Virus record (IMG/VR): IMGVR_UViG_3300020123_000077
Location: 1 to 62,711 of that record
Length of the DNA: 62,711 nt
Reading direction: 5' to 3' (one strand)
Source: a virus
Lineage: Duplodnaviria; Caudoviricetes
Shown: piece after piece, positions 19,818 through 32,568 of the stretch
Numbering within the stretch: position 1 is the stretch's first letter
How the letters are laid out: each line of letters opens with the position of its first letter
The notes under the pieces: model-generated
The model's input: only the letters and a program-made list of their open reading frames with translations
What the model was told of the DNA's origin: nothing
Databases searched by the model: none
Translations under genes and position numbers: made by a program

Positions 19818-20038
19818 TGTTTGGCAATATCGTCACGCTCGGTTTCAGCGCATTTGCAGGAACACCGCACATACCGACAATCGGCTATTCGTTTGGCGCA
19901 CCTCCACCTCCCGTTGTGGTCTCACATCACGGTGGCGATGACCCGCATGAATATGTGGATAGAAACTTGCTACGCAGGAAGAAACAGCAGAATATTGCAA
20001 TATCAATGGTTAAACAATTTCTGAAAGTCTATCAATGA
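19817..20038 (+). CDS. Small hypothetical protein
   Basis: TAATG and ATGA overlaps with neighbours. Confidence 0.5.
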   Translation: MFGNIVTLGFSAFAGTPHIPTIGYSFGAPPPPVVVSHHGGDDPHEYVDRNLLRRKKQQNIAISMVKQFLKVYQ

Positions 20039-23000
20039 GTTTGCGCGATTGCCTGAAAAAAGTAGGCCTATCCAAGCAGGATAGCGCCGTCGTGCGTGCT
20101 CTGGTGATGAATGAGAAAACGCCAAACAGGACAGCTGCCGAGTCAGCCAAGAGCGCGATTAGCAAAAGACTTGCCGAGTTGCATTCCGAGCGAGACTCGA
20201 TTAACAAGCAAGTCAATGACCATCTCTCTGGTAATAGTCAAGAAGAAAAAATTGCGGAACCTGCATCACAAAAAAATGAAGCAGAGATTGCTGCCGCCAA
20301 AGTAGAAGAAGCCAGCAAAGAAGCGGCACATAGTCCACTCAACGACAAGCCCCTCCCAACACCGGCTCAACATGAGGCCGGAAACTACGCCAAAGGCCAT
20401 GTCAATGTTTTAGGTATGGATATCACCATTGAGAATCCACGCGGCTCTGTGCGGTCTGGAATCGATCCCAATGGCAAAGAATGGCATGTCAAGATGACGG
20501 AACCCTATGGATACATTAAAAGAACTGTGGGCGGAGACAAAGAACATATCGATGTTTATTTGGGAAAGCACCTCACTGAAGATAATCCAGTCTTTGTGAT
20601 TGACCAGATCGACCCATCCACAAAGAAATTTGATGAACACAAGGTAGTTTTCGGTGCAAAAGGTTACGGCGAAGCAAAAGATATTTACGACAATCACTTT
20701 TCTGATGACAGCGGTGAGGTGCGTCGCGGTGCTGTGACCAAGATGGACTTGCAGTCATTCCAGAAATGGTTAAAGGGTGACACCACGACCGCACTGAAAT
20801 ATCAGGAACCGAAGACCACATCAAAGGCTGCGCCGGAGCGCCGCGCCGATACGACTACTCGCAAGTCAGTGTCCGATATGTCTGCCGATGAACTACGCCA
20901 GGCATTATTGACCGATCATTTGACAGGAATTAACAATCGCCGGGCTTACGAAGAGGCTGAAAAGTTACCAATTCAAGTCTCTTCTGATGCCGATTCATTG
21001 AAGTGGATCAACGATAATATGGGGCATGAATCCGGCGATAAAATGCTCAAGGCAATCGGTGAAGCATTCCGCTCGGAAACAGATCAAGCTTACCATATTT
21101 CTGGTGATGAATTTGTCGTACAGGCACATACACCAGAAGAAGCGCAACAGATCATGGATCGGGTTGCAGATCGCCTTTCTTCCGCTATACTACAAGCAGA
21201 CTCGCCAAGTGGTGATCGCATAACAGTTAAAGGAATAGGGGTAAGTCATGGAAAAGGAACCAGTCTCCAAGAAGCCGAATACGGACTCCAGCGAAATAAG
21301 CAAGAGCGACAAGATGCAGGGTTACGCAGTGCCCGTGGAACAGAGCCTCCAGGCACGACTCGAAGCGGAGGGAATCGGGAAGGGGTGGAAGATATCAAAA
21401 ATCACCCTGCCGCCGAAAGTAACGCATTAGAACAACCGGAAACAAAGCCGCCTCGCGCATTAACCAGGGAGGCGGCTAATCGCCTCGCCAAGCAATTCAC
21501 CGATCAAGGCAGTCCAACGCAAGTTATTCCTCATCCGACCGAACAGGGCAAGTATGCTTTGTTTAGTCGCGAAAAAACAATTGATGAAATACGCTCAAAT
21601 TATCCAGATGCAAAATTAGATATCCAAGAAAGAAAAGATTCTATCAATGTATCGCGTATTGTAATTGCGCCAGATGACAGGAATAAAGGTATCGGCACAA
21701 GGATAATGACTGATTTAATTGATCACGCTGATAAAACTGGAAAAACTATAACGCTATCTCCATCAAATGATTTTGGTGGATCAATTGTGCGCTTAAAGGC
21801 TTTCTATAAATCTTTTGGATTTGTAGAAAACGCAGGAAGAAATAAGGACTTCACTATTAGTGAATCTATGTATAGATTGCCACGTGATATTGATACAAAA
21901 TTCAAACGCGGGGAAGAGGGTAATGGCCTCAAATCATCGATGTTATCTGTCATGGCGAAGAACATCAAAGAGTCCTTCCCGCATGCCGCCGATATCGAAG
22001 TCCTTAAATCAACCCATGATGCACCAGAAGATTTACTATCGCAGATTCATGATGTAGATGGGCACGACACGATCAAGGGCGCTTGGTATGACGGCAAGGT
22101 CTATCTTTTTGCAGATAACATGCACTCACTCAAAGATGCCGAGACAACCATTCTGCACGAACTTGGGCACGATGGCATGCGCAAGTTGTTCGGTAAAGAC
22201 CTTGACCCTGTCCTGAAGAGTGTTTATGACGGTAGTGTCAAAGTCCAACTGGAAGTCGCCAAACTGCGTAAACAATTTCCTGATTTATCGATTACACAAG
22301 CAGTCGAAGAACACCTTGCCGACCTTGCTGCTTCTAAAGAACGTCCTACCTATCTCGGTAAAGTCGTCAGTTACATTCGTGACTTCTTGCGTCAGCACGG
22401 ATTTTTGACGAAGTTTTCTGATAACGATATTCTGAATATTGTTGAGTCGAGTCGTGGCGCATTGACTGGTACGCAAGGGGATTTTTCTGCCGCATTTAGC
22501 CGATCAATTAAAAACGAACTAGATGCCGCAAAAGAAGCATATGGCAAAGCACCGACCGCAAAGAATCTAAAAATATTAGAAGACTTGAAAAGTAAATATG
22601 CAGAGATTCCAAAATCTGAAGAAAGTGATTATCGTATTAGCCATCGCGCTCCCCAATCTGAATTTGGGGCACCATTACATGATTTAACAAAATTATATCC
22701 TGATGATATATATAGCTCTAAAGCGGCTCATTACTATGGGCATTTTGGACATGGTGACAAAATGGATGAGGCGTCTATAAAAATGGCGCAAAGTTTTCGA
22801 GATAAGCCAAATGCAAATGTGAAAATATATCGTGCCGTACCAGAGGGTGTTACTGGAATAAATTCTGGTGATTGGGTAACAATAAATAAAGAGTATGCAA
22901 AATATCATGGCGAATCTCAGTTTGATGGAAAATATAACATTGTAGAAAAAACCATTAAGGCAAAAGATATTTTCACAAATGGAGACTCTATTCATGAATG

Positions 23001-25581
23001 GGGATACGATCCAAATCATACGGCAATGTTTAGTCGCCCAACAAAGGCGCTAGATACGAGCCTTGATGAAATGAAAAAAATCAGCGATATAGCCTACGGC
23101 AAATTCCGTGAGTCACTCGCTACCATTGATCGTGAAACTGGAACTGTCGATGCCTCGTTAAAAACATTGCGTGATTACTTCAAATCCATCCCACAGGAAG
23201 ACCGCTGGAAGTCGATGGCCGAGTTTCAAAAAGGCGGCGTCAATGCCGTGAAAGATGCAAACGCCAGAGAGTTCTATGGTACATGGTCGAAAGCAGCGGA
23301 AGATCGTGCGCAAACCATGAAGGACTTCGATGAAGGATTTCTGAAAGAGACAATTCCAAACTACTTCTCGCAGATGTGGAAAGATCCGAAGTCAGCGATG
23401 GAATGGTATCAACGCATGATGGGAAAAGGCCCGCTTGAAGGCGGCAAGAACTTCATGAAGAAGCGTACCTATGCCAGCTATGAAGAGGGTATGTCGTGGA
23501 AAGTCTTTACAAAAGACGGTGACGCCAAGTTCTTTAAGACAGAAGAACAAGCGCGTGCCGCTGCAGGTAAAGACGATATGGTCAAGCCACCACTGGAGCC
23601 AATTTCCAATAATCCTACCGACATCATGCAATTGTCACTGCAGCAAATGGACAAGTTCATTGCAATGCACCAATTCAGAAACTATCTTGATGAAAACGGA
23701 TGGATTAAAACCGTGCGGCGTGGCGAACAAGCGCCGGATGGCTGGGCAAGAGTGGAAGACCCGTCATTCAGAACGCAACGTGCTGTCGTCATCAATGACA
23801 AGGAAACAGGCGAAGCGAATGCGGCAATCATCGGATTCGATTACATGGCACCGGCCTTGGTAGCGAAAGACCTGAACAATTACCTGTCAAAAGGGTTGGA
23901 GCAGCACGAGTTATGGCGCAACTTCCGCTATGCGCAAAACCTGATGTTGTCCGCCCGTCTCGGTTTATCCGCATTTCACGCAGGTTTCACGACGATGGAC
24001 ACGCTGGTGTCGCACGTCGATGTCGGTGCACGCTATCTATTGGATGGGGACGTTGGCAGCGCCGTCAAGATGTGGGGCAAGGCAATTACCTCCCCATTGA
24101 GCGCTCCGCTGGAAGGGCGTCGATTACTGAAACAGTTCTACGGACAGTCTGCAGCCGATCCGCACACTGCAGCAATCCTTGACATGATCACCAAAGGCGG
24201 TGCTCGTGGCAAGATGAATCCGACGGACTTCAATAATTCCATCAATACGTTTAAACAGGCATGGGACTCCAAGGATTTAAAAGGCACCGCCTTGCATGCG
24301 TTACCAGCGATGATGGAAGCGATTATGTCGCCTATAGCTAGTCACCTGGTTCCTTGGCAAAAGATGACTGCGCGTGTTCTGCTTGCGAAGTTTGAACTCG
24401 ATCACGTGGCCGAACAGTTGGGTAAACAAAAAGGTGATTATGCAGCGATTACCAAGGCCATGGGCGAAGACGCGATGCGTCAGATTGCCTACAAGGTTGT
24501 GCAGCAAGTCGATGACAGGCTGGGTCAGGTAGCGTATGACAATATGCGCTGGAACAAAATGGCGAAGCAGGTTGCCCAGGCATCGATCCAATCGGTCGGC
24601 TGGAACGTCGGTACGGCCAACGTCATCTTCGGTGGGGCGCGTGACGTACAGCGTCTATTCGCACCAGAACAGTTGTTGGCTCCATTGGATAGAGAAGGCA
24701 AGGTACACGGCACGTTAAGCAGAGTGACTGGCCGCTTGTCTTATCTGATTGCTTTGAACACTACGGTCGCCATGATGGGAATGGGTTTGCAGTATGCGAT
24801 GAGTGGCGAAGACCCAAAAGACTTGCGAGACCTATTCTTCCCGCGCACAGGGCGGAAAAATCCAGATGGAACCGATGAGAGGATTTCCCTGCCAAGCTAC
24901 ATCAAGGACGAATGGGCGTTAAGCCAGCATCCGATTCAAACAATCCAGCATAAACTCCATCCAAGTTTCTCGATGGTAGCCGAGTTATTGAACAACAAGG
25001 ATTTCTACGGAAACCAGATTGTCAATCCGGATGATCCATGGACAAAAATAGCCGGTCAGGTAGCTGGATATCTTGGTCAGTCCGTAACGCCTTATGCGAT
25101 TACCGGCATGCAGCAGAGCTTACATAAGGGAACGAGTCCTGAGATGGCAGCATTACCGTTTATCGGCGTGACACCGGCCCCTGCATCGGTATCGCGTACG
25201 CCGTTTGAAAGCTACGTGATCGATAAATACCAGGATGCATTCCATACCTCCAAGACGCCAGAAGGCGCAGAGAAAGCACAGGCACGTAGCGATGCGATCA
25301 ATGCCATCAAGAACGGGAAAGAACCCGATCTCACCATGTTCTCGCCACAGGAACGATCCAATATCTATACGAGCGCACGTACACCAATGCAAACCAGTTT
25401 GTTCAAACGTCTACCTCTGGAACAACAGTTGAGCGCTTACGATAAGGCCACCGTGGATGAGGTGCAAAAGTATAGATTGCTGCCTATCCTGTTACATAGT
25501 TACGCGATTCATGGATCACAAATGGATCAAGATGCAAGAGCACGTGCGCAAGAGATTATTACGGCAAAACAAAAATCATGA
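20035..25581 (+). CDS. Large polyvalent (virion-ejected) protein: inorganic-pyrophosphatase-like, GGDEF, GNAT, zincin and ART-like domains, helical C-terminus
   Basis: AGNYAKGHV...YGYI....GGD.EHIDVY...FDEHKV; TDHLTG..NRR...D.DSLKWINDNMGHESGD...SGDEF; RNKGIGT...FYKSFGF; HELGH; IYRAV...GDWVT...HEWGY. Confidence 0.85.
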   Translation: MSLRDCLKKVGLSKQDSAVVRALVMNEKTPNRTAAESAKSAISKRLAELHSERDSINKQVNDHLSGNSQEEKIAEPASQKNEAEIAAAKVEEASKEAAHSPLNDKPLPTPAQHEAGNYAKGHVNVLGMDITIENPRGSVRSGIDPNGKEWHVKMTEPYGYIKRTVGGDKEHIDVYLGKHLTEDNPVFVIDQIDPSTKKFDEHKVVFGAKGYGEAKDIYDNHFSDDSGEVRRGAVTKMDLQSFQKWLKGDTTTALKYQEPKTTSKAAPERRADTTTRKSVSDMSADELRQALLTDHLTGINNRRAYEEAEKLPIQVSSDADSLKWINDNMGHESGDKMLKAIGEAFRSETDQAYHISGDEFVVQAHTPEEAQQIMDRVADRLSSAILQADSPSGDRITVKGIGVSHGKGTSLQEAEYGLQRNKQERQDAGLRSARGTEPPGTTRSGGNREGVEDIKNHPAAESNALEQPETKPPRALTREAANRLAKQFTDQGSPTQVIPHPTEQGKYALFSREKTIDEIRSNYPDAKLDIQERKDSINVSRIVIAPDDRNKGIGTRIMTDLIDHADKTGKTITLSPSNDFGGSIVRLKAFYKSFGFVENAGRNKDFTISESMYRLPRDIDTKFKRGEEGNGLKSSMLSVMAKNIKESFPHAADIEVLKSTHDAPEDLLSQIHDVDGHDTIKGAWYDGKVYLFADNMHSLKDAETTILHELGHDGMRKLFGKDLDPVLKSVYDGSVKVQLEVAKLRKQFPDLSITQAVEEHLADLAASKERPTYLGKVVSYIRDFLRQHGFLTKFSDNDILNIVESSRGALTGTQGDFSAAFSRSIKNELDAAKEAYGKAPTAKNLKILEDLKSKYAEIPKSEESDYRISHRAPQSEFGAPLHDLTKLYPDDIYSSKAAHYYGHFGHGDKMDEASIKMAQSFRDKPNANVKIYRAVPEGVTGINSGDWVTINKEYAKYHGESQFDGKYNIVEKTIKAKDIFTNGDSIHEWGYDPNHTAMFSRPTKALDTSLDEMKKISDIAYGKFRESLATIDRETGTVDASLKTLRDYFKSIPQEDRWKSMAEFQKGGVNAVKDANAREFYGTWSKAAEDRAQTMKDFDEGFLKETIPNYFSQMWKDPKSAMEWYQRMMGKGPLEGGKNFMKKRTYASYEEGMSWKVFTKDGDAKFFKTEEQARAAAGKDDMVKPPLEPISNNPTDIMQLSLQQMDKFIAMHQFRNYLDENGWIKTVRRGEQAPDGWARVEDPSFRTQRAVVINDKETGEANAAIIGFDYMAPALVAKDLNNYLSKGLEQHELWRNFRYAQNLMLSARLGLSAFHAGFTTMDTLVSHVDVGARYLLDGDVGSAVKMWGKAITSPLSAPLEGRRLLKQFYGQSAADPHTAAILDMITKGGARGKMNPTDFNNSINTFKQAWDSKDLKGTALHALPAMMEAIMSPIASHLVPWQKMTARVLLAKFELDHVAEQLGKQKGDYAAITKAMGEDAMRQIAYKVVQQVDDRLGQVAYDNMRWNKMAKQVAQASIQSVGWNVGTANVIFGGARDVQRLFAPEQLLAPLDREGKVHGTLSRVTGRLSYLIALNTTVAMMGMGLQYAMSGEDPKDLRDLFFPRTGRKNPDGTDERISLPSYIKDEWALSQHPIQTIQHKLHPSFSMVAELLNNKDFYGNQIVNPDDPWTKIAGQVAGYLGQSVTPYAITGMQQSLHKGTSPEMAALPFIGVTPAPASVSRTPFESYVIDKYQDAFHTSKTPEGAEKAQARSDAINAIKNGKEPDLTMFSPQERSNIYTSARTPMQTSLFKRLPLEQQLSAYDKATVDEVQKYRLLPILLHSYAIHGSQMDQDARARAQEIITAKQKS

Positions 25582-26040
25582 ATTCAGGTGAATCAATGAT
25601 TGTGGCTTTTCAATAATCTCGTTCGATTGATAGCATGAAACACCAAGCGATGTAAATGCTTCCACCGTATCTGGGTCGCTTTCGAAGCGCATCAATACTT
25701 CCTCGCCCTTGCCTGCGTAGATATTCTGTGATGACTCTTGCTTGATGATGTGAGGTGGTCGCATATCCAAGTCTTCCCGCATGTGAATTGCACGTGGTTC
25801 CAGCATGCCAATTCCATTACACCATTCAATCATCTTTGAGCGGTCTCTCTCAGGTCGATTCGTCACGATATCGACATAAGGGATTTCATGGTCGCCATCA
25901 TCTTCTCTCAATGCATGGCCAATGATCTGCGCTTGCGTCACCAGCATATTGAACAGAACGACGCCGGATGGAATAGCCTCGCCTTTGGAGTCCATCAAGA
26001 CACCGTCAATTTCAAAAATAATCGCGTAACTTTTTTTCAT
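25576..26040 (-). CDS. HAD-superfamily phosphatase-like protein
   Basis: IIFEIDGVL (motif I, first Asp replaced by Glu), VTNRPE (motif II), MR...D.RP...IK; resembles a PNKP phosphatase domain. Confidence 0.65.
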   Translation of the reverse strand: MKKSYAIIFEIDGVLMDSKGEAIPSGVVLFNMLVTQAQIIGHALREDDGDHEIPYVDIVTNRPERDRSKMIEWCNGIGMLEPRAIHMREDLDMRPPHIIKQESSQNIYAGKGEEVLMRFESDPDTVEAFTSLGVSCYQSNEIIEKPQSLIHLNS

Positions 26041-26945
26041 AATGTTCCAGGTGTGATTCCATTAGCGCTTAAGACTTCACGCGCACCAAGCCACGCTTGC
26101 GCCTGACCAAAGATCATATTGACGAGTGGATCCCATGCATCCATACGAACGCCTTCCGGATGTAGATGGACGGCTTGCAAAGCACAGGTATGATAGAGCC
26201 GGTAGAGTTGTGCGTGATTTAACTCGGCAACACGCATGGATTCAACCGGATCGTTTTCAGCAGCCAGCATCTTCCCTCCAAATCCCATGTTCTCTGCACT
26301 CGCATGCTTGACATGAACGTGGTGCGGTTCTGCGATGACATAAAATCCCTTATCCAGAGCAGCCAGATAGCCCCACAGTACGTCGATTGTGTTGGGGCCA
26401 GCATGCGGCATCTTCTCCAAGAACTCGCGTGAATAACCGGCGATCACCGAACCATAAGCGAGTCTTGCAATTCCCTCACCGGCCGGCACATAGCCCGTCT
26501 CGGTTGGAAAGCCCGATACAGAATGCGCACCTACCGTGATGTCAACATCAGGTTCTGTGAAAAACATTGTCGTTGCAATCGCAGAGCATGGATTTTTCTC
26601 GATGGCTTCCATGCAGACCTTAACCCTATTTTCCAAAGAGTAGTCATCAGCACTGCATTGTAGTATGAAGTCAGCGTCAGTTTGCTTGACACACCAATCC
26701 ATATGTAGGTTCCCTGTTGCCATGCAATACGGGCCATCTATCGGACACGATACAACTCTTATTTCATGCTCGGCACCACGGGGGCATTCTAGAATCGCTT
26801 TGCCAATAACCTCCAAAGAATTATCCGTCGATCCTTGGTCGCTGATCAGGATCTCGCAAGGATATGTCTGTGCCAATGCACCTTGAACGGCTTTGTAGAC
26901 ATGCTGCGCTTTGTTTCTGTTATTGATTAGGAAGCAGATTTTCAT
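26037..26945 (-). CDS. Glycosyltransferase family 2 (GT-A)
   Basis: ALAQTYPCEILISDQGSTDNS and SADDYS (DxD-like) motifs. Confidence 0.85.
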   Translation of the reverse strand: MKICFLINNRNKAQHVYKAVQGALAQTYPCEILISDQGSTDNSLEVIGKAILECPRGAEHEIRVVSCPIDGPYCMATGNLHMDWCVKQTDADFILQCSADDYSLENRVKVCMEAIEKNPCSAIATTMFFTEPDVDITVGAHSVSGFPTETGYVPAGEGIARLAYGSVIAGYSREFLEKMPHAGPNTIDVLWGYLAALDKGFYVIAEPHHVHVKHASAENMGFGGKMLAAENDPVESMRVAELNHAQLYRLYHTCALQAVHLHPEGVRMDAWDPLVNMIFGQAQAWLGAREVLSANGITPGTL

Positions 26946-27415
26946 TTTTTATCCTCAGATGAGTCGCGCCACTCGTTAAGTTTTAAGCCATATAAACTAA
27001 GATTAATTTTTATTATATTAAGTTTTTTCGGCCCTAAATTTGGAACTTTAAGCAACTGATAGGCTGTCTTTGAGATAAGTTCATCAATAGAATTGATGCC
27101 TTCTGCACTCAATATCTGTCTAAGATTTTGGTGAATTTTTTTATCAAAAACTATATCCATAGAAACGGTAGGAGCCTTTAAAAGTATTTCTTTTGATTTT
27201 GTTTCTATATATTCATTTGCAACTATATTTATTTCTGGAATCTCGAACACTAAAAAAACGTTTGGCCCTCCCTGCCTAAGTGAAAATTTATCATTGAAAG
27301 CATTTGCAATTGTGTCTGCTACTGATCTATCCGAAAAAACACCGACTATAGCGGATGTAACACCATGATGAAGGCATCCGATATTCATAACTAACCATTG
27401 TTTTTTAATGTCCAT
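26942..27415 (-). CDS. Protein with a C-terminal RNA polymerase alpha-CTD-like domain
   Basis: LSAEGINSIDEL...LLKVPNLGPKKL..IK..L...GL.L matches the alpha-CTD HhH pattern; AT-rich. Confidence 0.7.
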   Translation of the reverse strand: MDIKKQWLVMNIGCLHHGVTSAIVGVFSDRSVADTIANAFNDKFSLRQGGPNVFLVFEIPEINIVANEYIETKSKEILLKAPTVSMDIVFDKKIHQNLRQILSAEGINSIDELISKTAYQLLKVPNLGPKKLNIIKINLSLYGLKLNEWRDSSEDKK

Positions 27416-27423
27416 GATAATTA

Positions 27424-29712
27424 TTAAATGAAATTTTTATGCAACACGCCATCGCCATTCGTCAGTTTAATTAACTCAATGCCTTTTGCATGCCTATCAA
27501 GCGCAACATTTGCATAATGCTGGATTGATAAAGTACCTTGCATAGTTTGTGCGTCCCATGCTGGTGAAGCCAAGTAATTCATAGCTCGACTGTAGCGATC
27601 TGATTTAAAAATATCGATAAAGCGTTCTTCAGTAAAATTACCTAAATGAAGCTTTGAATAACGAGCATTAAAGAATAGTCCAGCCGGAGCGACCAATCCG
27701 CTACCACTAATTTGCAATAAAAAATTACAACCATATACCCTATTATATGACGTCTTGTCACCATCCTTTATTTTGTCCCACTTAACAATGACCTTGGTTT
27801 GTTCCGTGCTCATTGCTTCAGCCTGAGACAGTAGACTATACATGTCTTCGTACTTTGAATAATCCACACCAAGAGTATGGGCCTCATCATCACTGCAATG
27901 TTTTATGACTGCATAGTCAACACCAAGATCAACGCCAAGTTTAGCAAAGTCAAGAATCTCATCCTTAAATTCTGGCATCAATACCATCTGGATGCCCAGC
28001 GTGACTTTCAACCCAAGCTTACGTTTGAGATCGACTGCGTACTTGATATGCGACATGGCTCGATCAAACACGTGCGTATGCTCTTTCCCCTTGTACATGA
28101 TAGCTGCGTAGCTTTCTGGACGACCTGCTGCGACAGTGAAGCGCACCCATGACAAGTGCGGAAGTACTTGGTCAATCTTTTCCGGTTCCCACTCCCATGC
28201 ATTCGTCGCGTTGCCGACATCGATACCAAGTTCTGCTGCATGCTGGATGAATGGTACATATGCTTTTGAAAGTGTGCTCTCGCCATCAGAGACGAGCGAC
28301 ACAGCGCGCACACCGATCTCAGCGAAGTCATCCAATAGATTCAGTGCGTGGATCGTCTTGATGTTCGGACGTTCCTGCGGCTCTTGCATCATCGCATAGC
28401 AGTTATGAACAATTACTCCAGATGCAATGAAGTTGTGATGTGGAGAACATTCTAAATCGAAAACTGGTGAACATCCGGCATCGTTGATCGACAAGATTGG
28501 ATGCCACTCAACCACATACTCACTTCTTTTTCCACTTGATTGAAATGTTTTTGCAGAAGATGGTTCTCTATCCATAACACAAATATTTTCCATCCAGCCA
28601 TCGAGTAGTCCAGCATCTCGATGGTCGCCTCCGTTTCTTTGTGCCAATATCGTCCGTGTAGTAATAATGCAATCTTGTTCTTGCCTCTCTCCAAAATGTA
28701 ATCCGGATTCCTGGAGATTCCGCTTTGTGTCTTGTTTATCCAAAATTCTGAATCTCCTGTGTACTTGAATCCCATTGGAGAAATCAGGGTGAATAGTTTT
28801 GCCTCCGTTTTGTTCATCCCATTCTTTACTGCCATTCTTCGATGTGCTGACGTTATTTTCCCCTCTGACCAAGTTTGTTTCATTCGATTCGATGAAACAA
28901 TATTTGCCCCGTTCAATTTGCGCGTTTGAATAACCTTGTTGACTGTTTCCAAATTTTTCATTGGGTTGTTCGCCTTCATGAGATTTGAATACATTTCCCT
29001 TCGCTCTGCGGACATTGGGTTCTTTGGACGAAAACTTCCATTGGCTTGACGTTCTCTCGTCTCCTTTGAAAAGCGCTCTCCATGCTTTTCTGAAAAAGTC
29101 TTTCCAGCTTGAGCGGCTATCTCGGCATTTTTCATTGGATTGTTGGTTTTCATGCGAGCGGATGCTTTCATTTTTTCCGCTGCCGATATTGGAGTTTTCC
29201 TCCCCATCTTCCCAGACTTTATTTGCTCTATCATTTTGAGCCGCATTTTCTGTTTTTCCTCTTCTGATCGAGGGCCGTATCGTGCCAATTAAATCTCCAA
29301 TATCAAGTTTTCCAGCCGCAACCCATCCTTTATTAGTAAGCACAGGATGATCTAATGAACAACGTAAAACATCATTCGCTGTTATTAAAGATATTATACT
29401 CTTACTTGGACTTGTTTCCCAATGTGCCAACACTGTACTTTCACATATGTTGCCATCATTGAAAGATACTACACGATCACCTATGGATATAGCTGACATT
29501 GGCTTTTTAGAGCCATTCGCCATAAGGATTAATTCCTCTGGAGGAATGCAGAAGCTACACATCGCTCCGCAACTTCTTGTCAAAGCCATATCAATCGATA
29601 CTGGCGCGATCTTCTCGCCAGCTTCCCATGATTGAACACGGTCATAGTGATAACCAAGTTTATGCGAGTCAAGAATTAATGTGCCTTCTTTTGTTTTGAT
29701 TGCGTCACTCAT
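27424..29712 (-). CDS. Radical SAM enzyme interrupted by an intein (379 aa after splicing)
   Basis: CGAMCSF|intein|CYAMM rebuilds CxxxCxxC; SDGEST motif; paralogous to 36747-37835. Confidence 0.9.
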   Translation of the reverse strand: MSDAIKTKEGTLILDSHKLGYHYDRVQSWEAGEKIAPVSIDMALTRSCGAMCSFCIPPEELILMANGSKKPMSAISIGDRVVSFNDGNICESTVLAHWETSPSKSIISLITANDVLRCSLDHPVLTNKGWVAAGKLDIGDLIGTIRPSIRRGKTENAAQNDRANKVWEDGEENSNIGSGKNESIRSHENQQSNEKCRDSRSSWKDFFRKAWRALFKGDERTSSQWKFSSKEPNVRRAKGNVFKSHEGEQPNEKFGNSQQGYSNAQIERGKYCFIESNETNLVRGENNVSTSKNGSKEWDEQNGGKTIHPDFSNGIQVHRRFRILDKQDTKRNLQESGLHFGERQEQDCIITTRTILAQRNGGDHRDAGLLDGWMENICVMDREPSSAKTFQSSGKRSEYVVEWHPILSINDAGCSPVFDLECSPHHNFIASGVIVHNCYAMMQEPQERPNIKTIHALNLLDDFAEIGVRAVSLVSDGESTLSKAYVPFIQHAAELGIDVGNATNAWEWEPEKIDQVLPHLSWVRFTVAAGRPESYAAIMYKGKEHTHVFDRAMSHIKYAVDLKRKLGLKVTLGIQMVLMPEFKDEILDFAKLGVDLGVDYAVIKHCSDDEAHTLGVDYSKYEDMYSLLSQAEAMSTEQTKVIVKWDKIKDGDKTSYNRVYGCNFLLQISGSGLVAPAGLFFNARYSKLHLGNFTEERFIDIFKSDRYSRAMNYLASPAWDAQTMQGTLSIQHYANVALDRHAKGIELIKLTNGDGVLHKNFI
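28402..29550 (-). mobile_element. Intein (383 aa)
   Basis: Block A CIPPEELILMANG; block B LRCSLDHPVLTNKGW; blocks F/G VFDLECSPHHNFIASGVIVHN followed by Cys+1. Confidence 0.92.
28452..29288 (-). CDS. Vsr/DUF559-like homing endonuclease with NUMOD3-like repeats, nested out of frame in the intein
   Basis: NNPMK repeats; RNPDY...LHGRYWH...GWKIFVLW; GGAG RBS 6 nt before the TTG start. Confidence 0.8.
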   Translation of the reverse strand: MARYGPRSEEEKQKMRLKMIEQIKSGKMGRKTPISAAEKMKASARMKTNNPMKNAEIAAQAGKTFSEKHGERFSKETRERQANGSFRPKNPMSAERREMYSNLMKANNPMKNLETVNKVIQTRKLNGANIVSSNRMKQTWSEGKITSAHRRMAVKNGMNKTEAKLFTLISPMGFKYTGDSEFWINKTQSGISRNPDYILERGKNKIALLLHGRYWHKETEATIEMLDYSMAGWKIFVLWIENHLLQKHFNQVEKEVSMWLSGIQSCRSTMPDVHQFSI

Positions 29713-29897
29713 GCTATTTTTCTTTCAAGTAGCCACTTGGCAAATTGATGTACATCTTCATCAACAGTTATATTTTCAGATGAATTAATGCTCACATTCA
29801 CATGGTAATTGCTTGCTATGTATGGAGCAACAAGTCTAATTGTCTTAACCATTAAATCAAGCGTTTTATTTTCCTCTTCTTTTTGCTTGTTACTCAT
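29709..29897 (-). CDS. Hypothetical protein
   Basis: ATGA overlaps on both sides. Confidence 0.55.
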   Translation of the reverse strand: MSNKQKEEENKTLDLMVKTIRLVAPYIASNYHVNVSINSSENITVDEDVHQFAKWLLERKIA

Positions 29898-30214
29898 AAT
29901 TGCTTCACCTCAATACCTCTTAATTTTCTTAACGGGCTTTTATCTCCCTGTGATTCCAACCACACCGTAAGTGATGGATCGACATTCTTCTTTAGGCATT
30001 CTTCAAGATCAAGCAATAACCCGCCGCGTTGATTTGCTGGTACGTTTTCACTGAACTCAACCAGAACCTGACCATCTATTTTGGATTCTTTCAACGTGAT
30101 GATTTTTGAGAATTTGCAAATTTCATCTCTGATGACAAGCGCTCTTACAAGTTTATTCTGAGCCAACCATTCTTTGCTTGGCGTAGGAGTTTTTTCAAAT
30201 GCATGGTTAATCAT
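29894..30214 (-). CDS. Hypothetical protein of the sugar cluster (possible radical SAM accessory)
   Basis: Translationally coupled; RGGLLLDLEE...LTVWLE..GDKS.LR. Confidence 0.6.
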   Translation of the reverse strand: MINHAFEKTPTPSKEWLAQNKLVRALVIRDEICKFSKIITLKESKIDGQVLVEFSENVPANQRGGLLLDLEECLKKNVDPSLTVWLESQGDKSPLRKLRGIEVKQL

Positions 30215-32568
30215 TCCAAAATCTCCACAGGTTTAACAATCATTTGCTCATTGAATTCATCTCTTGGTAGAAAGGGAAAGAGATCCTCCAAAGGCTTACT
30301 GACAATCGATCCATCAGGGCGCTTCAGGCTGGACAGACGTGGGATCAATGGCTGATCTGGTGCCATCATGATTTCATAGATCGTTGGTGAATAGCGCTCC
30401 TTGAGTCCGTATAATTCATCCAGCAATTGTTTGTGGTTCTCAATTCTTACGGCTGGAATATCATACGCCTTGGCTATTTTCAATGTGTCAGGAAAACTGA
30501 CGCCACTCGATTCTTCGCTTCCCACCATTCTTCCGAAGTGATTTGCTTGCATGTGTTTGATTGTAAGGTATCCGCCGTTATTCAAAACGAAAATAATGAT
30601 AGGAAGATTTAAATGTTTTATCGTCTGTAGTTCTTGAATATTAAACTGTAATGCGCCGTCTCCGACGATACAGACAGTTTTCTTTCTTCCGCTGGCAAGG
30701 CACGCCCCAATTGCACCTGGTAGTCCATACCCCATCGGCGCATGGCCAGACGCCGTGATCCAGCGTTGATACGCCTTCATCTTCGCAGTTTGGAACGTAG
30801 CAGTAAAGGCCGTACCCATATCTGTGACGACAACCGCATCCCAATATAATTTTTCCGAAAGCTTTTCAATAAAATAGAAACTATTTACGTATTCTTTTTG
30901 TTCTGCGTACTCCGGTAAGACAACTGGATATTTTTGCTTCCATTCAAGACACTGAATCAACCATTTTGATGGCTCATTAATTTCGAAAGGAATCGTCTTA
31001 CGAAGACCATTAATGAATTGTTTTGCATCGCAAACGATGCCGAGATCAACATGTAGAGATGGCTTGACAATTTCAGCCTCGTCCACATCGACCATGACGA
31101 TCTTTGCTTCACGTGCAAACGTCGAGAAGTTATAACCAGTTTGCGGGACGGATAGTCTGCAGCCAACGACAATCAATAGATCGGCATTTTGCACGGTGAA
31201 GTTACCAGCCCGATCACCGAAGATTCCGAAGTGACCAATGTGTTTCTGCTCATTGATCAACAGGTCTGATCCTGTCCACGAAGACAAGATAGGGATATCC
31301 AGATGCGCACACAGCGCACGTAATTCGTTCTGTGCACTGGCCAACCGAACACCGTTTCCAATAACAAGAGCAGGGCGCTTTGCCTCTCTCAGCATCATTA
31401 AGCATTTTTGCACGTTCTCATCCAGCGAGATATTGGATATTTTCGGATGTGGTATTGTTTTGATTGGTACGTCGGTATAGCTATCCAATTCTAATGGATT
31501 GATTTGCTTTGCCTGAATGTCCAGTGGGATATCGACCCAAACCGGCCCCTGCCTTCCTGACCTTGCGATATGAGCGGCTTTTTCCAGTTCGTAGCGGATG
31601 TCTTTTTCATTCATCACTGTGACAGCATATTTTGTAATCGACTTTACCATCGTCACAATATCGGATTCTTGCACGCCGAATTGACGAAGTCCAAGTCCGG
31701 TTAAAAGTGTATCGCGTGTTACTTGTCCAGAGAGATATAGAACAGGAATACTATCGACCCAAGCGCAAGCCACGCCTGTGATAGCGTTTGTCCCTCCGGG
31801 GCCAGTAGTGACAAGAGCGCACCCAATACCGTTAATACGAGAATAAGCTTCAGCAGCCATCGCAGCGCTTTGCTCATGATGCGTCGCCACATATTCAAGT
31901 CCTTCATGTTTTCCAACCGAGTCGCACAAATGCATGGCTCCGCCACCCGATACGGAGAACACATGTTTGATGCCAAGCTTTGCAATGAAGTTGGTAACGT
32001 AGTCGGATACTTTCATGGTCGTTTCTTTTTCAATACTGAAAACATATTCAGCAAGATTGCCAATAGCCATAACAAGCCCATTTGGTTTTTCATGCCATCC
32101 ATCAGTACTTTGAATTCTAAACTGATAGCCCATAAAACTGAATGGCACGTCAGATAATTCAAGCAGCTTCCCTTTATATGGAATCTCGTCCGTTTCAATC
32201 GGCTTACCGGCGCGGCCATACGAATCTTCTTTTCGAATGATATCGCCTTTATCATTCGGTTCTTCAATCTCGATTAACCAGACGCCATTTTCAGAAGTTG
32301 GGATTAAAGAAAACGGATTGATTGCATGACTCTGGTGATAAACACCTTTTGGAATATCCGCAATTTCCAATGGGTTCAACAATCGAGTGCCAGACTCATC
32401 CGTAAACATCAATCCTTCTGTTAAAGGAATGAGACGTGTCCGTTTGTTTGGATGGCAGTGAAATGAAGTGGAATGACCTCTGGCGATGTGCAATATCCAA
32501 ATAGCCACACTATCTGTTTCGTATGCACAGTACTCATAACCCCATCCTTTTTTGACGATGCCTGTCAT
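30211..32568 (-). CDS. Cupin fused to a thiamine-pyrophosphate enzyme (ALS/YerE-like)
   Basis: N-terminal K.WG.E...SFHCHP.K cupin; then HHEQSAAMAAEAY, TTGPGGTNA and GDGALQFNIQEL...NNGG TPP motifs. Confidence 0.9.
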   Translation of the reverse strand: MTGIVKKGWGYEYCAYETDSVAIWILHIARGHSTSFHCHPNKRTRLIPLTEGLMFTDESGTRLLNPLEIADIPKGVYHQSHAINPFSLIPTSENGVWLIEIEEPNDKGDIIRKEDSYGRAGKPIETDEIPYKGKLLELSDVPFSFMGYQFRIQSTDGWHEKPNGLVMAIGNLAEYVFSIEKETTMKVSDYVTNFIAKLGIKHVFSVSGGGAMHLCDSVGKHEGLEYVATHHEQSAAMAAEAYSRINGIGCALVTTGPGGTNAITGVACAWVDSIPVLYLSGQVTRDTLLTGLGLRQFGVQESDIVTMVKSITKYAVTVMNEKDIRYELEKAAHIARSGRQGPVWVDIPLDIQAKQINPLELDSYTDVPIKTIPHPKISNISLDENVQKCLMMLREAKRPALVIGNGVRLASAQNELRALCAHLDIPILSSWTGSDLLINEQKHIGHFGIFGDRAGNFTVQNADLLIVVGCRLSVPQTGYNFSTFAREAKIVMVDVDEAEIVKPSLHVDLGIVCDAKQFINGLRKTIPFEINEPSKWLIQCLEWKQKYPVVLPEYAEQKEYVNSFYFIEKLSEKLYWDAVVVTDMGTAFTATFQTAKMKAYQRWITASGHAPMGYGLPGAIGACLASGRKKTVCIVGDGALQFNIQELQTIKHLNLPIIIFVLNNGGYLTIKHMQANHFGRMVGSEESSGVSFPDTLKIAKAYDIPAVRIENHKQLLDELYGLKERYSPTIYEIMMAPDQPLIPRLSSLKRPDGSIVSKPLEDLFPFLPRDEFNEQMIVKPVEILE

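Follow-up and report, generated by a model that had tools for sequence, protein, structure and literature searches.

The 62,711-nucleotide (nt) window analysed here, i.e., the whole stretch of IMG/VR virus record IMGVR_UViG_3300020123_000077 (Duplodnaviria; Caudoviricetes), carries on its minus strand a gene (27424..29712) for a 762-amino-acid (aa) radical SAM/SPASM-type precursor, which is composed of an N-extein, an intein and a C-extein and which matches both the Radical_SAM and the Intein_splicing families of Pfam. We conclude, with a probability of about 85%, that the radical-SAM gene of this phage is interrupted by a contiguous intein which itself contains a gene for a homing endonuclease, the latter being encoded on the same strand but in the +1 frame relative to the host gene. 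The endonuclease open reading frame (ORF; 28452..29288, minus strand), identified from the ORF list, homologues and a family profile, specifies 278 aa plus a stop codon and begins 424 nt into the host ORF (424 mod 3 = 1).

Inteins are defined by a Cys or Ser nucleophile at position 1 and by a Cys, Ser or Thr at position +1 of the C-extein; a T/S-x-x-H motif in block B and a C-terminal His-Asn are further intein motifs. The host protein of the window shows Cys1, Cys+1, a block B SLDH (host aa 119-122) and a terminal VHN. Its N-extein (29551..29712, minus strand; aa 1-54) ends in CGAMCSF, which holds the first two Cys of a CxxxCxxC iron-sulfur (Fe-S) motif, and is colinear with the intein-less allele P0153. 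The intein itself (28402..29550, minus strand; 383 aa, host aa 55-437) extends from Cys1 (CIPPEE) to the His-Asn (VHN), and the C-extein (27424..28401, minus strand; aa 438-762), recognized by its identity to intein-less alleles, begins with CYAMMQ. The insertion point is the third Cys of CxxxCxxC (CGAMCSF/C, where the slash marks a splice junction here and below), which is regained as Cys+1.

Two parts of the intein matched a mini-intein profile, i.e., an N-terminal Hint part (29275..29550, minus strand; host aa 55-146), with a block-B-like SLDHPVLT at 29335-29358, and a C-terminal Hint part (28402..28527, minus strand; host aa 396-437), which ends in VHN and is 50-62% identical to its relatives. 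Pfam family PF14890 matched the host ORF with an E value of 7.3e-13 (49 bits; cutoff 35.8). When a profile of six two-frame inteins was compared to solved structures, 68 chains were matched, the best stretches all fell within profile positions 1-105 and 327-365, and the closest match to the Hint halves was the Spl DnaX mini-intein (7cfv; E 1.3e-17). P0153, the closest of the intein-less homologues listed and 89% identical to the window over the C-extein, reads CGAMCSFCYAMMQ without interruption at the junction, and subtraction of the intein from the precursor (762-383) leaves 379 aa, the exact length of the intein-less alleles. This length, together with the colinearity of P0153 over the junction, therefore indicates that the boundaries proposed in an earlier note on this DNA, which had described a 383-aa intein with normal splicing blocks, are right; the empty-site junction given there, TGTAGCTTC/TGCTATGCG, is the correct extein junction.

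The protein read in the +1 frame has three homologues to which it is 48-53% identical, and belongs to a family that comprised 1183 representative clusters at E <= 1e-3, 122 at E <= 1e-10 and 26 at E <= 1e-30 in a profile search. In the Protein Data Bank (PDB), a 62-sequence profile of this family matched 3r3p, the structure of I-Bth0305I, with an E value of 3.4e-8 and three structures of Vsr with E values from 7e-6 to 1.4e-5, and among the 62 members 12 matched the Pfam family Vsr, six NUMOD3 and five DUF559. A four-sequence endonuclease profile gave no meaningful match in the PDB, and no PHROGs family matched the endonuclease. The nuclease core (28563..28817, minus strand; endonuclease aa 158-242) includes an NPD motif (D196 at 28701-28703) and the motif HGRYWH (H211 at 28656-28658 and H216 at 28641-28643). 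This segment aligned to PDF...HGCFWH of Vsr, and D196, H211 and H216, which we take to be equivalent to Vsr D51, H64 and H69, are all present. Columns conserved in at least 90% of the 62 sequences include N194, P195, D196, G212, W215 and H216, and all of these are intact in the window's protein.

Repeats of the form (R)MK.NNPMK are conserved in the family. The first NUMOD3-like repeat of the window's protein, SARMKTNNPMKN (29127..29162, minus strand), contains R45, M46, N50, P51 and M52, which are invariant in a 12-sequence alignment; a second full repeat, LMKANNPMKN (28953..28982), and a weaker copy, KNPMS (29004-29030), both on the minus strand, were also found by alignment. The Pfam NUMOD3 model matched six of the 62 members and, at E <= 0.01, did not match the window's protein, whose net charge is +23. 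The nuclease core is homologous at the profile level to those of I-Bth0305I (3r3p) and Vsr (1vsr, 1cw0, 1odg), the motif PD...HG.(F/Y)WH aligning with Vsr. Unlike the window's endonuclease, neither of the two is nested out of frame in an intein, as the gene for I-Bth0305I lies in a group I intron and Vsr serves very-short-patch repair in cells; the window's protein, moreover, adds NUMOD3-type repeats on the N-terminal side. Judging from the family profile and the conserved columns, the +1 ORF is a real, conserved nuclease of the Vsr/DUF559 superfamily with putative DNA-binding repeats of the NUMOD3 type, as the earlier note had proposed when it described a Vsr-like protein with NNPMK repeats at 29288-28452.

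The host frame reads quite differently over the same bases. Between the two Hint parts lies an insert of 747 nt (28528..29274, minus strand; host aa 147-395) that composition and profiles characterize as hydrophilic, unconserved and stop-free. Its grand average of hydropathy (GRAVY) is -1.36, and the residues ILVFMWY make up 19% of it as compared to 34-36% in the Hint parts and the C-extein. No Pfam domain matched the insert, and no PDB entry matched it in the search with the six-intein profile; in the ESM Atlas model of the host protein, the insert stretch reached a TM score of at most 0.26 to anything. The middle of the intein is therefore hydrophilic and without recognizable motifs, as had been noted from the translation, and profile searches of both frames place a nuclease in the +1 frame and none in the host-frame insert.

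Both frames are open over the entire overlap, and this is not expected by chance. When the +1 protein was kept fixed, resampling or permuting its codons introduced 15-24 stops on average into the host frame and left it open in 0 of 20,000 trials. When the host-frame protein was fixed instead, codon resampling left the +1 frame open in 0.4-1.5% of trials. In the third frame, 19 stops occur over the overlap.

Selection in the window's own lineage was assessed by pairwise comparison of the window with its nearest relatives at the DNA level, L021 and L022 (L numbers denote loci). Differences among the three amounted to 0.43-0.49, 0.35-0.41 and 0.66-0.68 at the first, second and third positions of the endonuclease codons, respectively. 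These differences are dominated by third positions and thus indicate that purifying selection acts on the endonuclease frame. Moreover, the amino-acid sequences read in the endonuclease frame were 41-49% identical, as compared to 20-21% for the host frame and 15-22% for the unused one. An open but unconserved host frame is what would be expected if ribosomes have to cross the insert before they can translate the C-terminal Hint part and the C-extein. As judged from these comparisons, the host frame across the 747-nt insert is constrained only to lack stops, and its protein sequence is unconserved. The single stretch in which the host frame is the constrained one is the overlap with the coding region of the C-terminal Hint part. 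Here the C-terminal tail of the endonuclease (28455..28520, minus strand) includes the sequence MPD(I/V)HQFS, which is common to P0001-P0003 and overlies a conserved SPVFDLEC of the host frame.

Searches of viral, genome and metagenome contigs that were based on the endonuclease, so that loci were found only by endonuclease similarity, yielded 67 loci, 43 of them non-redundant. The two-frame layout was present in nine of the 43 (L001, L002, L013, L020/21, L022, L038, L048, L054 and L059); in 12 the endonuclease match lay in frame within a long ORF, and in the other 22 the endonuclease ORF was of stand-alone size. In all nine two-frame loci the endonuclease is in the +1 phase relative to the host. 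A permutation test on these nine loci and the window left the host frame open in 0 of 5000 permutations for nine of the ten and in 4 of 5000 for L022. Eight of the nine are inteins that interrupt CxxxCxxC at its second or third Cys, their hosts being radical-SAM genes of three kinds, while the two-frame intein of L059 is located at the DEC/F motif of an SNF2-type helicase. The helicase ORF of L059 (660-4625) is 1322 aa long and appears to hold two inteins, the upstream one canonical-looking and LAGLIDADG-like and the second one with the +1-frame endonuclease. Two long alleles of the window's enzyme, P0274 and P0275, have a similar junk middle with EQP.E "shadows" of NNPM; P0275 is, by eye, identical to the host ORF of L038.

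Seven of the loci with an endonuclease of stand-alone size were inspected (L003, L039, L056, L032, L016, L023 and L031). Three of them are "fractured" radical-SAM genes with a split intein at the Fe-S Cys motif (L003:3469-5303, L039:1829-3868 and L056:2315-4330), in which an ORF comprising the N-extein, the N-terminal half of the intein and a stop comes first, the gene for the endonuclease next and then the C-terminal half of the intein with the C-extein. L032 (2506-5159) also carries a split radical-SAM intein, but with the NUMOD3/nuclease module fused in frame to the N half, after which a separate ORF begins with the C half. In L016, L023 and L031 the endonuclease is present without adjoining intein halves. 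Radical-SAM inteins with in-frame endonucleases, at the same or a neighbouring Cys, were found in L004, L014, L017-L019 and L030. As a separate observation, P0278 (702 aa), a member of the same radical-SAM family, has a different intein at another site (APC/F...AHN/CGMLFN), and its precomputed Pfam matches include LAGLIDADG.

The layout also occurs in cultured phages. A tblastn search with the L059 endonuclease matched 40 cultured-phage records (37 Vibrio, two Corynebacterium and one Pseudomonas), whereas searches of cultured phages with the window's own endonuclease and with that of L013 gave no match, and a search with the host protein gave only four weak partial matches. Six records were examined, i.e., those of the Vibrio phages CP-T1 (L070; NC_019457, gp10), K391, 1.194.O, 1.088.O and 159E43-1a (L071-L073 and L075) and of the Corynebacterium phage phi673 (L074; gp43). 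In all six the +1 match lies inside one annotated helicase coding sequence (836-993 aa), and the endonuclease is not annotated. The intein boundaries read DEC/F...HN/C, and the endonuclease ORFs are of the DUF559 type and 215-263 aa long; the two that were tested against DUF559 (CP-T1 and K391) matched it above cutoff. The host frame was open in 0 of 3000 permutations for each of the six genes. Among three close Vibrio phages, the ratio of nonsynonymous to synonymous substitution rates (dN/dS), determined over the same bases, was 0.03-0.15 in the endonuclease frame as compared to 1.3-2.1 in the host frame. When aligned with hhalign, the profiles of the nuclease cores from this helicase group and from the window's family matched with a probability of 96% (E 4e-9).

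On these grounds we propose the following course of events. Ribosomes on the radical-SAM mRNA would read through the whole gene and produce the 762-aa precursor, in which a disordered loop of about 250 aa would separate the Hint halves. The Hint halves would then fold and splice, and the 379-aa enzyme would be released with an intact CxxxCxxC motif. A smaller share of the ribosomes would initiate internally at GGAG-N6-TTG (29298-29286) and produce an endonuclease of about 32 kDa. In a mixed infection, this endonuclease would cut intein-less alleles near TGTAGCTTC/TGCTATGCG, and repair would copy the intein into them (homing). Speculatively, ribosome traffic in the host frame might throttle the internal start and in this way tie the dose of endonuclease to the expression of the host gene.

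The candidate ribosome-binding site and start (29286..29298, minus strand) are present as the earlier note had described them, with GGAG at 29298-29295, a 6-nt spacer and TTG at 29288-29286; the TTG is the first possible start, and it is from this signal that we infer separate translation of the endonuclease. A sigma-70-like site (TTGGGA-18-TATAAT; 29393..29422, minus strand) lies within the intein, at a distance of about 105 nt upstream from the endonuclease start, and agrees with 10 of the 12 consensus positions; it is weak, and is possibly an internal promoter (29422-29393). Promoter-like sites were not enriched in the region (6, as compared to 7.2 expected by chance from shuffled sequences), and no RNA structure stood out near the endonuclease start (z = 0.43).

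Several observations weigh against the conclusion that the locus holds a working endonuclease gene inside a working intein. Of the three relatives aligned at the start region, only L021 shares the signal, as GGAGA-N5-TTG, whereas L022 and L038 lack it at this place, and the remaining loci have different or poor candidate starts for the endonuclease. Taken alone, the window's +1 protein matches Vsr weakly and below curated cutoffs (Pfam, E 0.041; NCBIfam, E 4.8e-4), and it is therefore on profiles that the assignment of the endonuclease family depends. In the window's lineage the synonymous sites are saturated, so that proper dN/dS values come only from the helicase-intein lineage, the nuclease core of which is distantly homologous. 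Finally, that the +1 ORF is translated, that a precursor containing a 250-aa loop splices and that the endonuclease cleaves DNA are all predictions from sequence.

The poor conservation of candidate internal starts among relatives is also what gives weight to a different route of expression, in which programmed +1 frameshifting, and not internal initiation, would yield a fusion of N-extein, N-terminal Hint part and endonuclease, with the architecture of the locus being the same. The +1 frame opens right after the N-terminal Hint part in all loci, and neither a promoter nor an RNA structure is prominent near the endonuclease start, as frameshifting would allow. On the other hand, the window has GGAG, 6 nt and TTG at exactly the first possible start, gene callers have called Met-initiated versions of most homologues, and inspection of the start regions by eye, which was not a systematic search, revealed no shared slippery or hungry-codon motif. 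A hungry-codon frameshift at the tandem AGA AGA of the site was rejected, as AGA is not a rare codon of the phage, accounting for 44 of the 278 Arg codons of seven long genes. Overall, we consider frameshifting rather unlikely and prefer internal initiation within an intact intein gene.

The consistently hydrophilic character of the host-frame insert, which has been kept open with its reading frame maintained over long evolutionary distances, might alternatively indicate that the insert is itself functional, e.g., as a regulatory or conditional-splicing linker, and that dual coding serves both proteins. An identity no higher than about that of the unused frame, the elevated host-frame dN/dS in the helicase lineage and the absence of a domain or structural match make such a function very unlikely, and they agree instead with the suggestion in the earlier note that the intein frame is kept free of stops while its sequence is expendable.

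We further considered that the +1 ORF might be a decaying relic with no present function, left after two compensating frameshifts in an ordinary intein with an in-frame endonuclease. Radical-SAM inteins of that ordinary kind do exist among the loci found here. However, a wrong frame of 278 codons would hold about 15 stops by chance, the catalytic columns are intact, and the +1 frame shows its third-position pattern and an identity of 41-49% among relatives, every one of which has the shifted layout, a layout that was found in 10 metagenomic and six cultured-phage loci; the low dN/dS of the endonuclease frame in the helicase lineage likewise speaks against decay. The relic explanation is hence highly improbable. 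Compensating sequencing or assembly errors at both ends of an in-frame endonuclease have a negligible chance of accounting for the locus, even though the record is metagenome-derived and no more than 151 nt of the region is spanned by independent reads, since two indel errors would not render the wrong frame stop-free (0 of 20,000) and other samples, assembled independently, as well as the genomes of isolated phages show the same layout. These reads came from one public run with a 0.07 share of the stretch. They gave a 151-nt contig (28967-29117) with one mismatch but without an indel, as well as two short pieces (29566-29611), which is too little to decide the matter.

Returning to the +1 endonuclease gene as a functional element, its constant phase can be related to the genetic code. 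In the +1 phase, a host-frame stop requires an endonuclease codon that ends in T followed by a codon that starts with AA, AG or GA. As no amino acid needs a codon that ends in T, all such stops can be removed silently by T-to-C changes. T preceded AA, AG or GA in 329 of 1183 contexts in free-standing homologues, which represents the expectation, and in 0 of 745 contexts in overlapping ones, where the zero follows by definition from the open host frame. The other phase would have a TGA forced upon it (e.g., by ATG AAR) wherever Met precedes Lys, Asn, Thr, Ile or Met, and each of ten endonucleases contains one to eight such Met-(K/N/T/I/M) pairs, several of them within the NUMOD3 consensus. The layout would thus always be +1 because the Met-Lys and Met-Asn pairs of NUMOD3 would force irremovable stops in the other phase.

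The history of the arrangement was examined with a nuclease-core tree of 18 rows (three long-branch rows were dropped, and three others lacked the anchoring motif). Overlapping forms were interleaved with free-standing and fractured ones in this tree, and L048 was sister to the free-standing L023 (support 99/96). The overlapping state changed four times on the best tree, with at least two changes forced by well-supported branches. A single clade of the nine overlapping rows was rejected (approximately unbiased [AU] test, p = 1e-4; the group was named after a quick tree had been viewed). In a Hint-domain tree, good support was confined to two of the 17 inner branches, which is too poor a resolution to add to this result, and that tree was compatible with one common origin of the overlapping forms. 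The window's extein is 74-89% identical to four intein-less alleles (three listed proteins and L069) and 42-64% identical to other intein-bearing alleles; for the C-extein, the identity is 78-89% both to the three listed proteins and to the best 120 listed homologues. This pattern of extein identity fits either gain by homing or frequent loss.

The relatives also fit an origin in which a free-standing endonuclease gene entered a mini-intein, an idea that had been put forward from this locus alone and is strengthened by the fractured genes (L003, L039 and L056), the stand-alone forms (L016 and L023), the in-frame relatives and the AU result. A wider proposition joins these results, namely that the +1 layout is a stable and recurrent third arrangement of endonuclease inteins beside the in-frame and the fractured ones, that it interconverts with free-standing and fractured forms, that its phase is confined by the code, and that it is widespread but unannotated; as a joint statement, we regard this as about evenly balanced between true and false.

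The kind of element described here, i.e., an intein with an out-of-frame endonuclease, has already been published. A cyanobacterial dnaX intein with an out-of-frame LAGLIDADG endonuclease has been reported (Phillips, DeSimone & Gogarten, bioRxiv 10.64898/2026.09.14.751524), in a text that attributes the first proposal to Gorbalenya 1998. As that text presents it, the dnaX intein resembles the window's in being contiguous, with a disordered in-frame middle and an overlapping endonuclease ORF on the same strand, in having a low omega in the endonuclease frame and a high omega in the host frame, and in having a Shine-Dalgarno-like motif upstream; secondary invasion of a mini-intein is proposed there as well. 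It differs from the window's intein in that the endonuclease belongs to the LAGLIDADG family and not to a Vsr/DUF559-like family with NUMOD3 repeats, and in that the phase is written as "+2ORF", while the phase here is +1. The host gene here, unlike that of the dnaX account, is a phage radical-SAM gene cut at its Fe-S Cys motif, and the arrangement recurs in unrelated host genes and is interleaved with split-intein forms.

Non-canonical inteins of actinobacteriophages have been described with antisense VSR-like genes and with "frame 3" same-strand endonuclease VII-like genes (bioRxiv 10.1101/2025.01.02.630785). In the account given in the article, they share with the window's intein an endonuclease outside the extein frame, VSR-like relatives of I-Bth0305I (3R3P) and a structureless in-frame middle, and the authors argue that endonuclease genes were captured from a free-standing state. 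Of the four architectures in the passages considered here, none is a VSR-like endonuclease in the +1 frame of the same strand.

The fractured genes described by Dassa et al. 2009 (PMC2677866) contain split inteins with a free-standing gene for a Vsr-like or GIY-YIG endonuclease between the halves. The cases laid out in that article are like the window's locus in the endonuclease family, the shared strand, the location between Hint halves and the origin from environmental phage. The 3' end of the endonuclease gene overlaps the C-terminal intein region by 6-69 bp in the fractured genes of the article and by 73 nt here (28455-28527). According to the same text, however, the N half of a fractured gene ends in a stop, a spacer of 27-51 nt follows and the C half has its own start, whereas no host-frame stop occurs from 29712 to 27424 in the window, so that the gene is unbroken and splicing would be in cis. 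The term "radical SAM" occurs 0 times in the article's text, and such genes are not among the hosts named in it. The ShiLan case (2025, PMC11855218), as its article presents it, is also one of an endonuclease hidden in another frame of a host gene that is still open, and the route by which the endonuclease is translated is a question in both cases; ShiLan has no splicing domains and its insert stays in the host protein, while here the Hint halves and splice-junction residues are intact.

In the texts covered by full-text literature searches, beyond which supplements may list further cases, there was no same-strand +1 Vsr/NUMOD3 endonuclease in a contiguous intein, no radical-SAM host, no helicase cases from Vibrio or Corynebacterium phages and no phase rule; in the same literature, no paper contained both "CP-T1" and "intein". 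The kind of intein is thus already in print, while its combination of endonuclease family, strand, phase and host gene was not found there. The window's locus is a real exception to the rule of in-frame endonucleases, as had been pointed out, and belongs to a rare kind, but it is not unprecedented, as inteins with endonucleases in another frame or on the other strand are already published; these precedents therefore lower the novelty as compared to what the earlier note implied.

The window represents a complete phage record of 62.7 kb with direct terminal repeats; a terminase and a portal of the P22 type are encoded in it, and ARAGORN detected neither tRNA nor transfer-messenger RNA (tmRNA) genes in positions 1-62711. 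A search with the C-extein (178-569-aa range) gave 4076 homologues of the host protein at E <= 1e-20, and the best 120 of these 4076 were 321-382 aa long, mostly 379 aa. Neighbours of the radical-SAM gene within 26037-32568 on the minus strand include a glycosyltransferase-like ORF (26037-26945) and, at 30211-32568, a cupin plus thiamine-pyrophosphate (TPP; acetolactate-synthase-like) enzyme. In the database relatives P0276, P0277 and P0279, the radical-SAM enzyme is fused to glycosyltransferase or TPP domains. This gene context suggests that the radical-SAM, glycosyltransferase-like and TPP genes may belong to one pathway. Immediately downstream of the radical-SAM gene, a 157-aa ORF (26942-27415, minus strand) has a C-terminus like the C-terminal domain of the RNA polymerase alpha subunit (NCBIfam, E 2e-7, far under the family cutoff). 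An ORF of 1848 aa on the plus strand (20035-25581) combines an inorganic-pyrophosphatase-like domain (PF18823, E 4e-46) with GGDEF and GNAT acetyltransferase domains.

Beyond the published cases, the present analysis adds the recurrence of the layout, its link to fractured genes, an explanation of the phase that is based on the code, and cultured phages that carry the layout. Annotation misses such endonucleases (none was annotated in the six cultured records), and the middles of such inteins are at risk of being misread as degenerate endonuclease domains. For biotechnology, the loci offer a pool of Vsr/NUMOD3 endonucleases that would be aimed at conserved radical-SAM and helicase motifs and cis-splicing inteins that may tolerate about 250 disordered residues. 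They also represent a clean natural overlap in which selection appears to act on the protein sequence of one frame, while all it demands of the other is freedom from stops. With regard to the evolution of inteins, the window's locus would supply an intermediate that is absent from the text of Dassa et al. 2009 (PMC2677866), i.e., an endonuclease that is inside a contiguous (or re-joined) intein gene but out of frame, and it provides sequence-level support for the model that inteins gain endonucleases by capturing free-standing genes.

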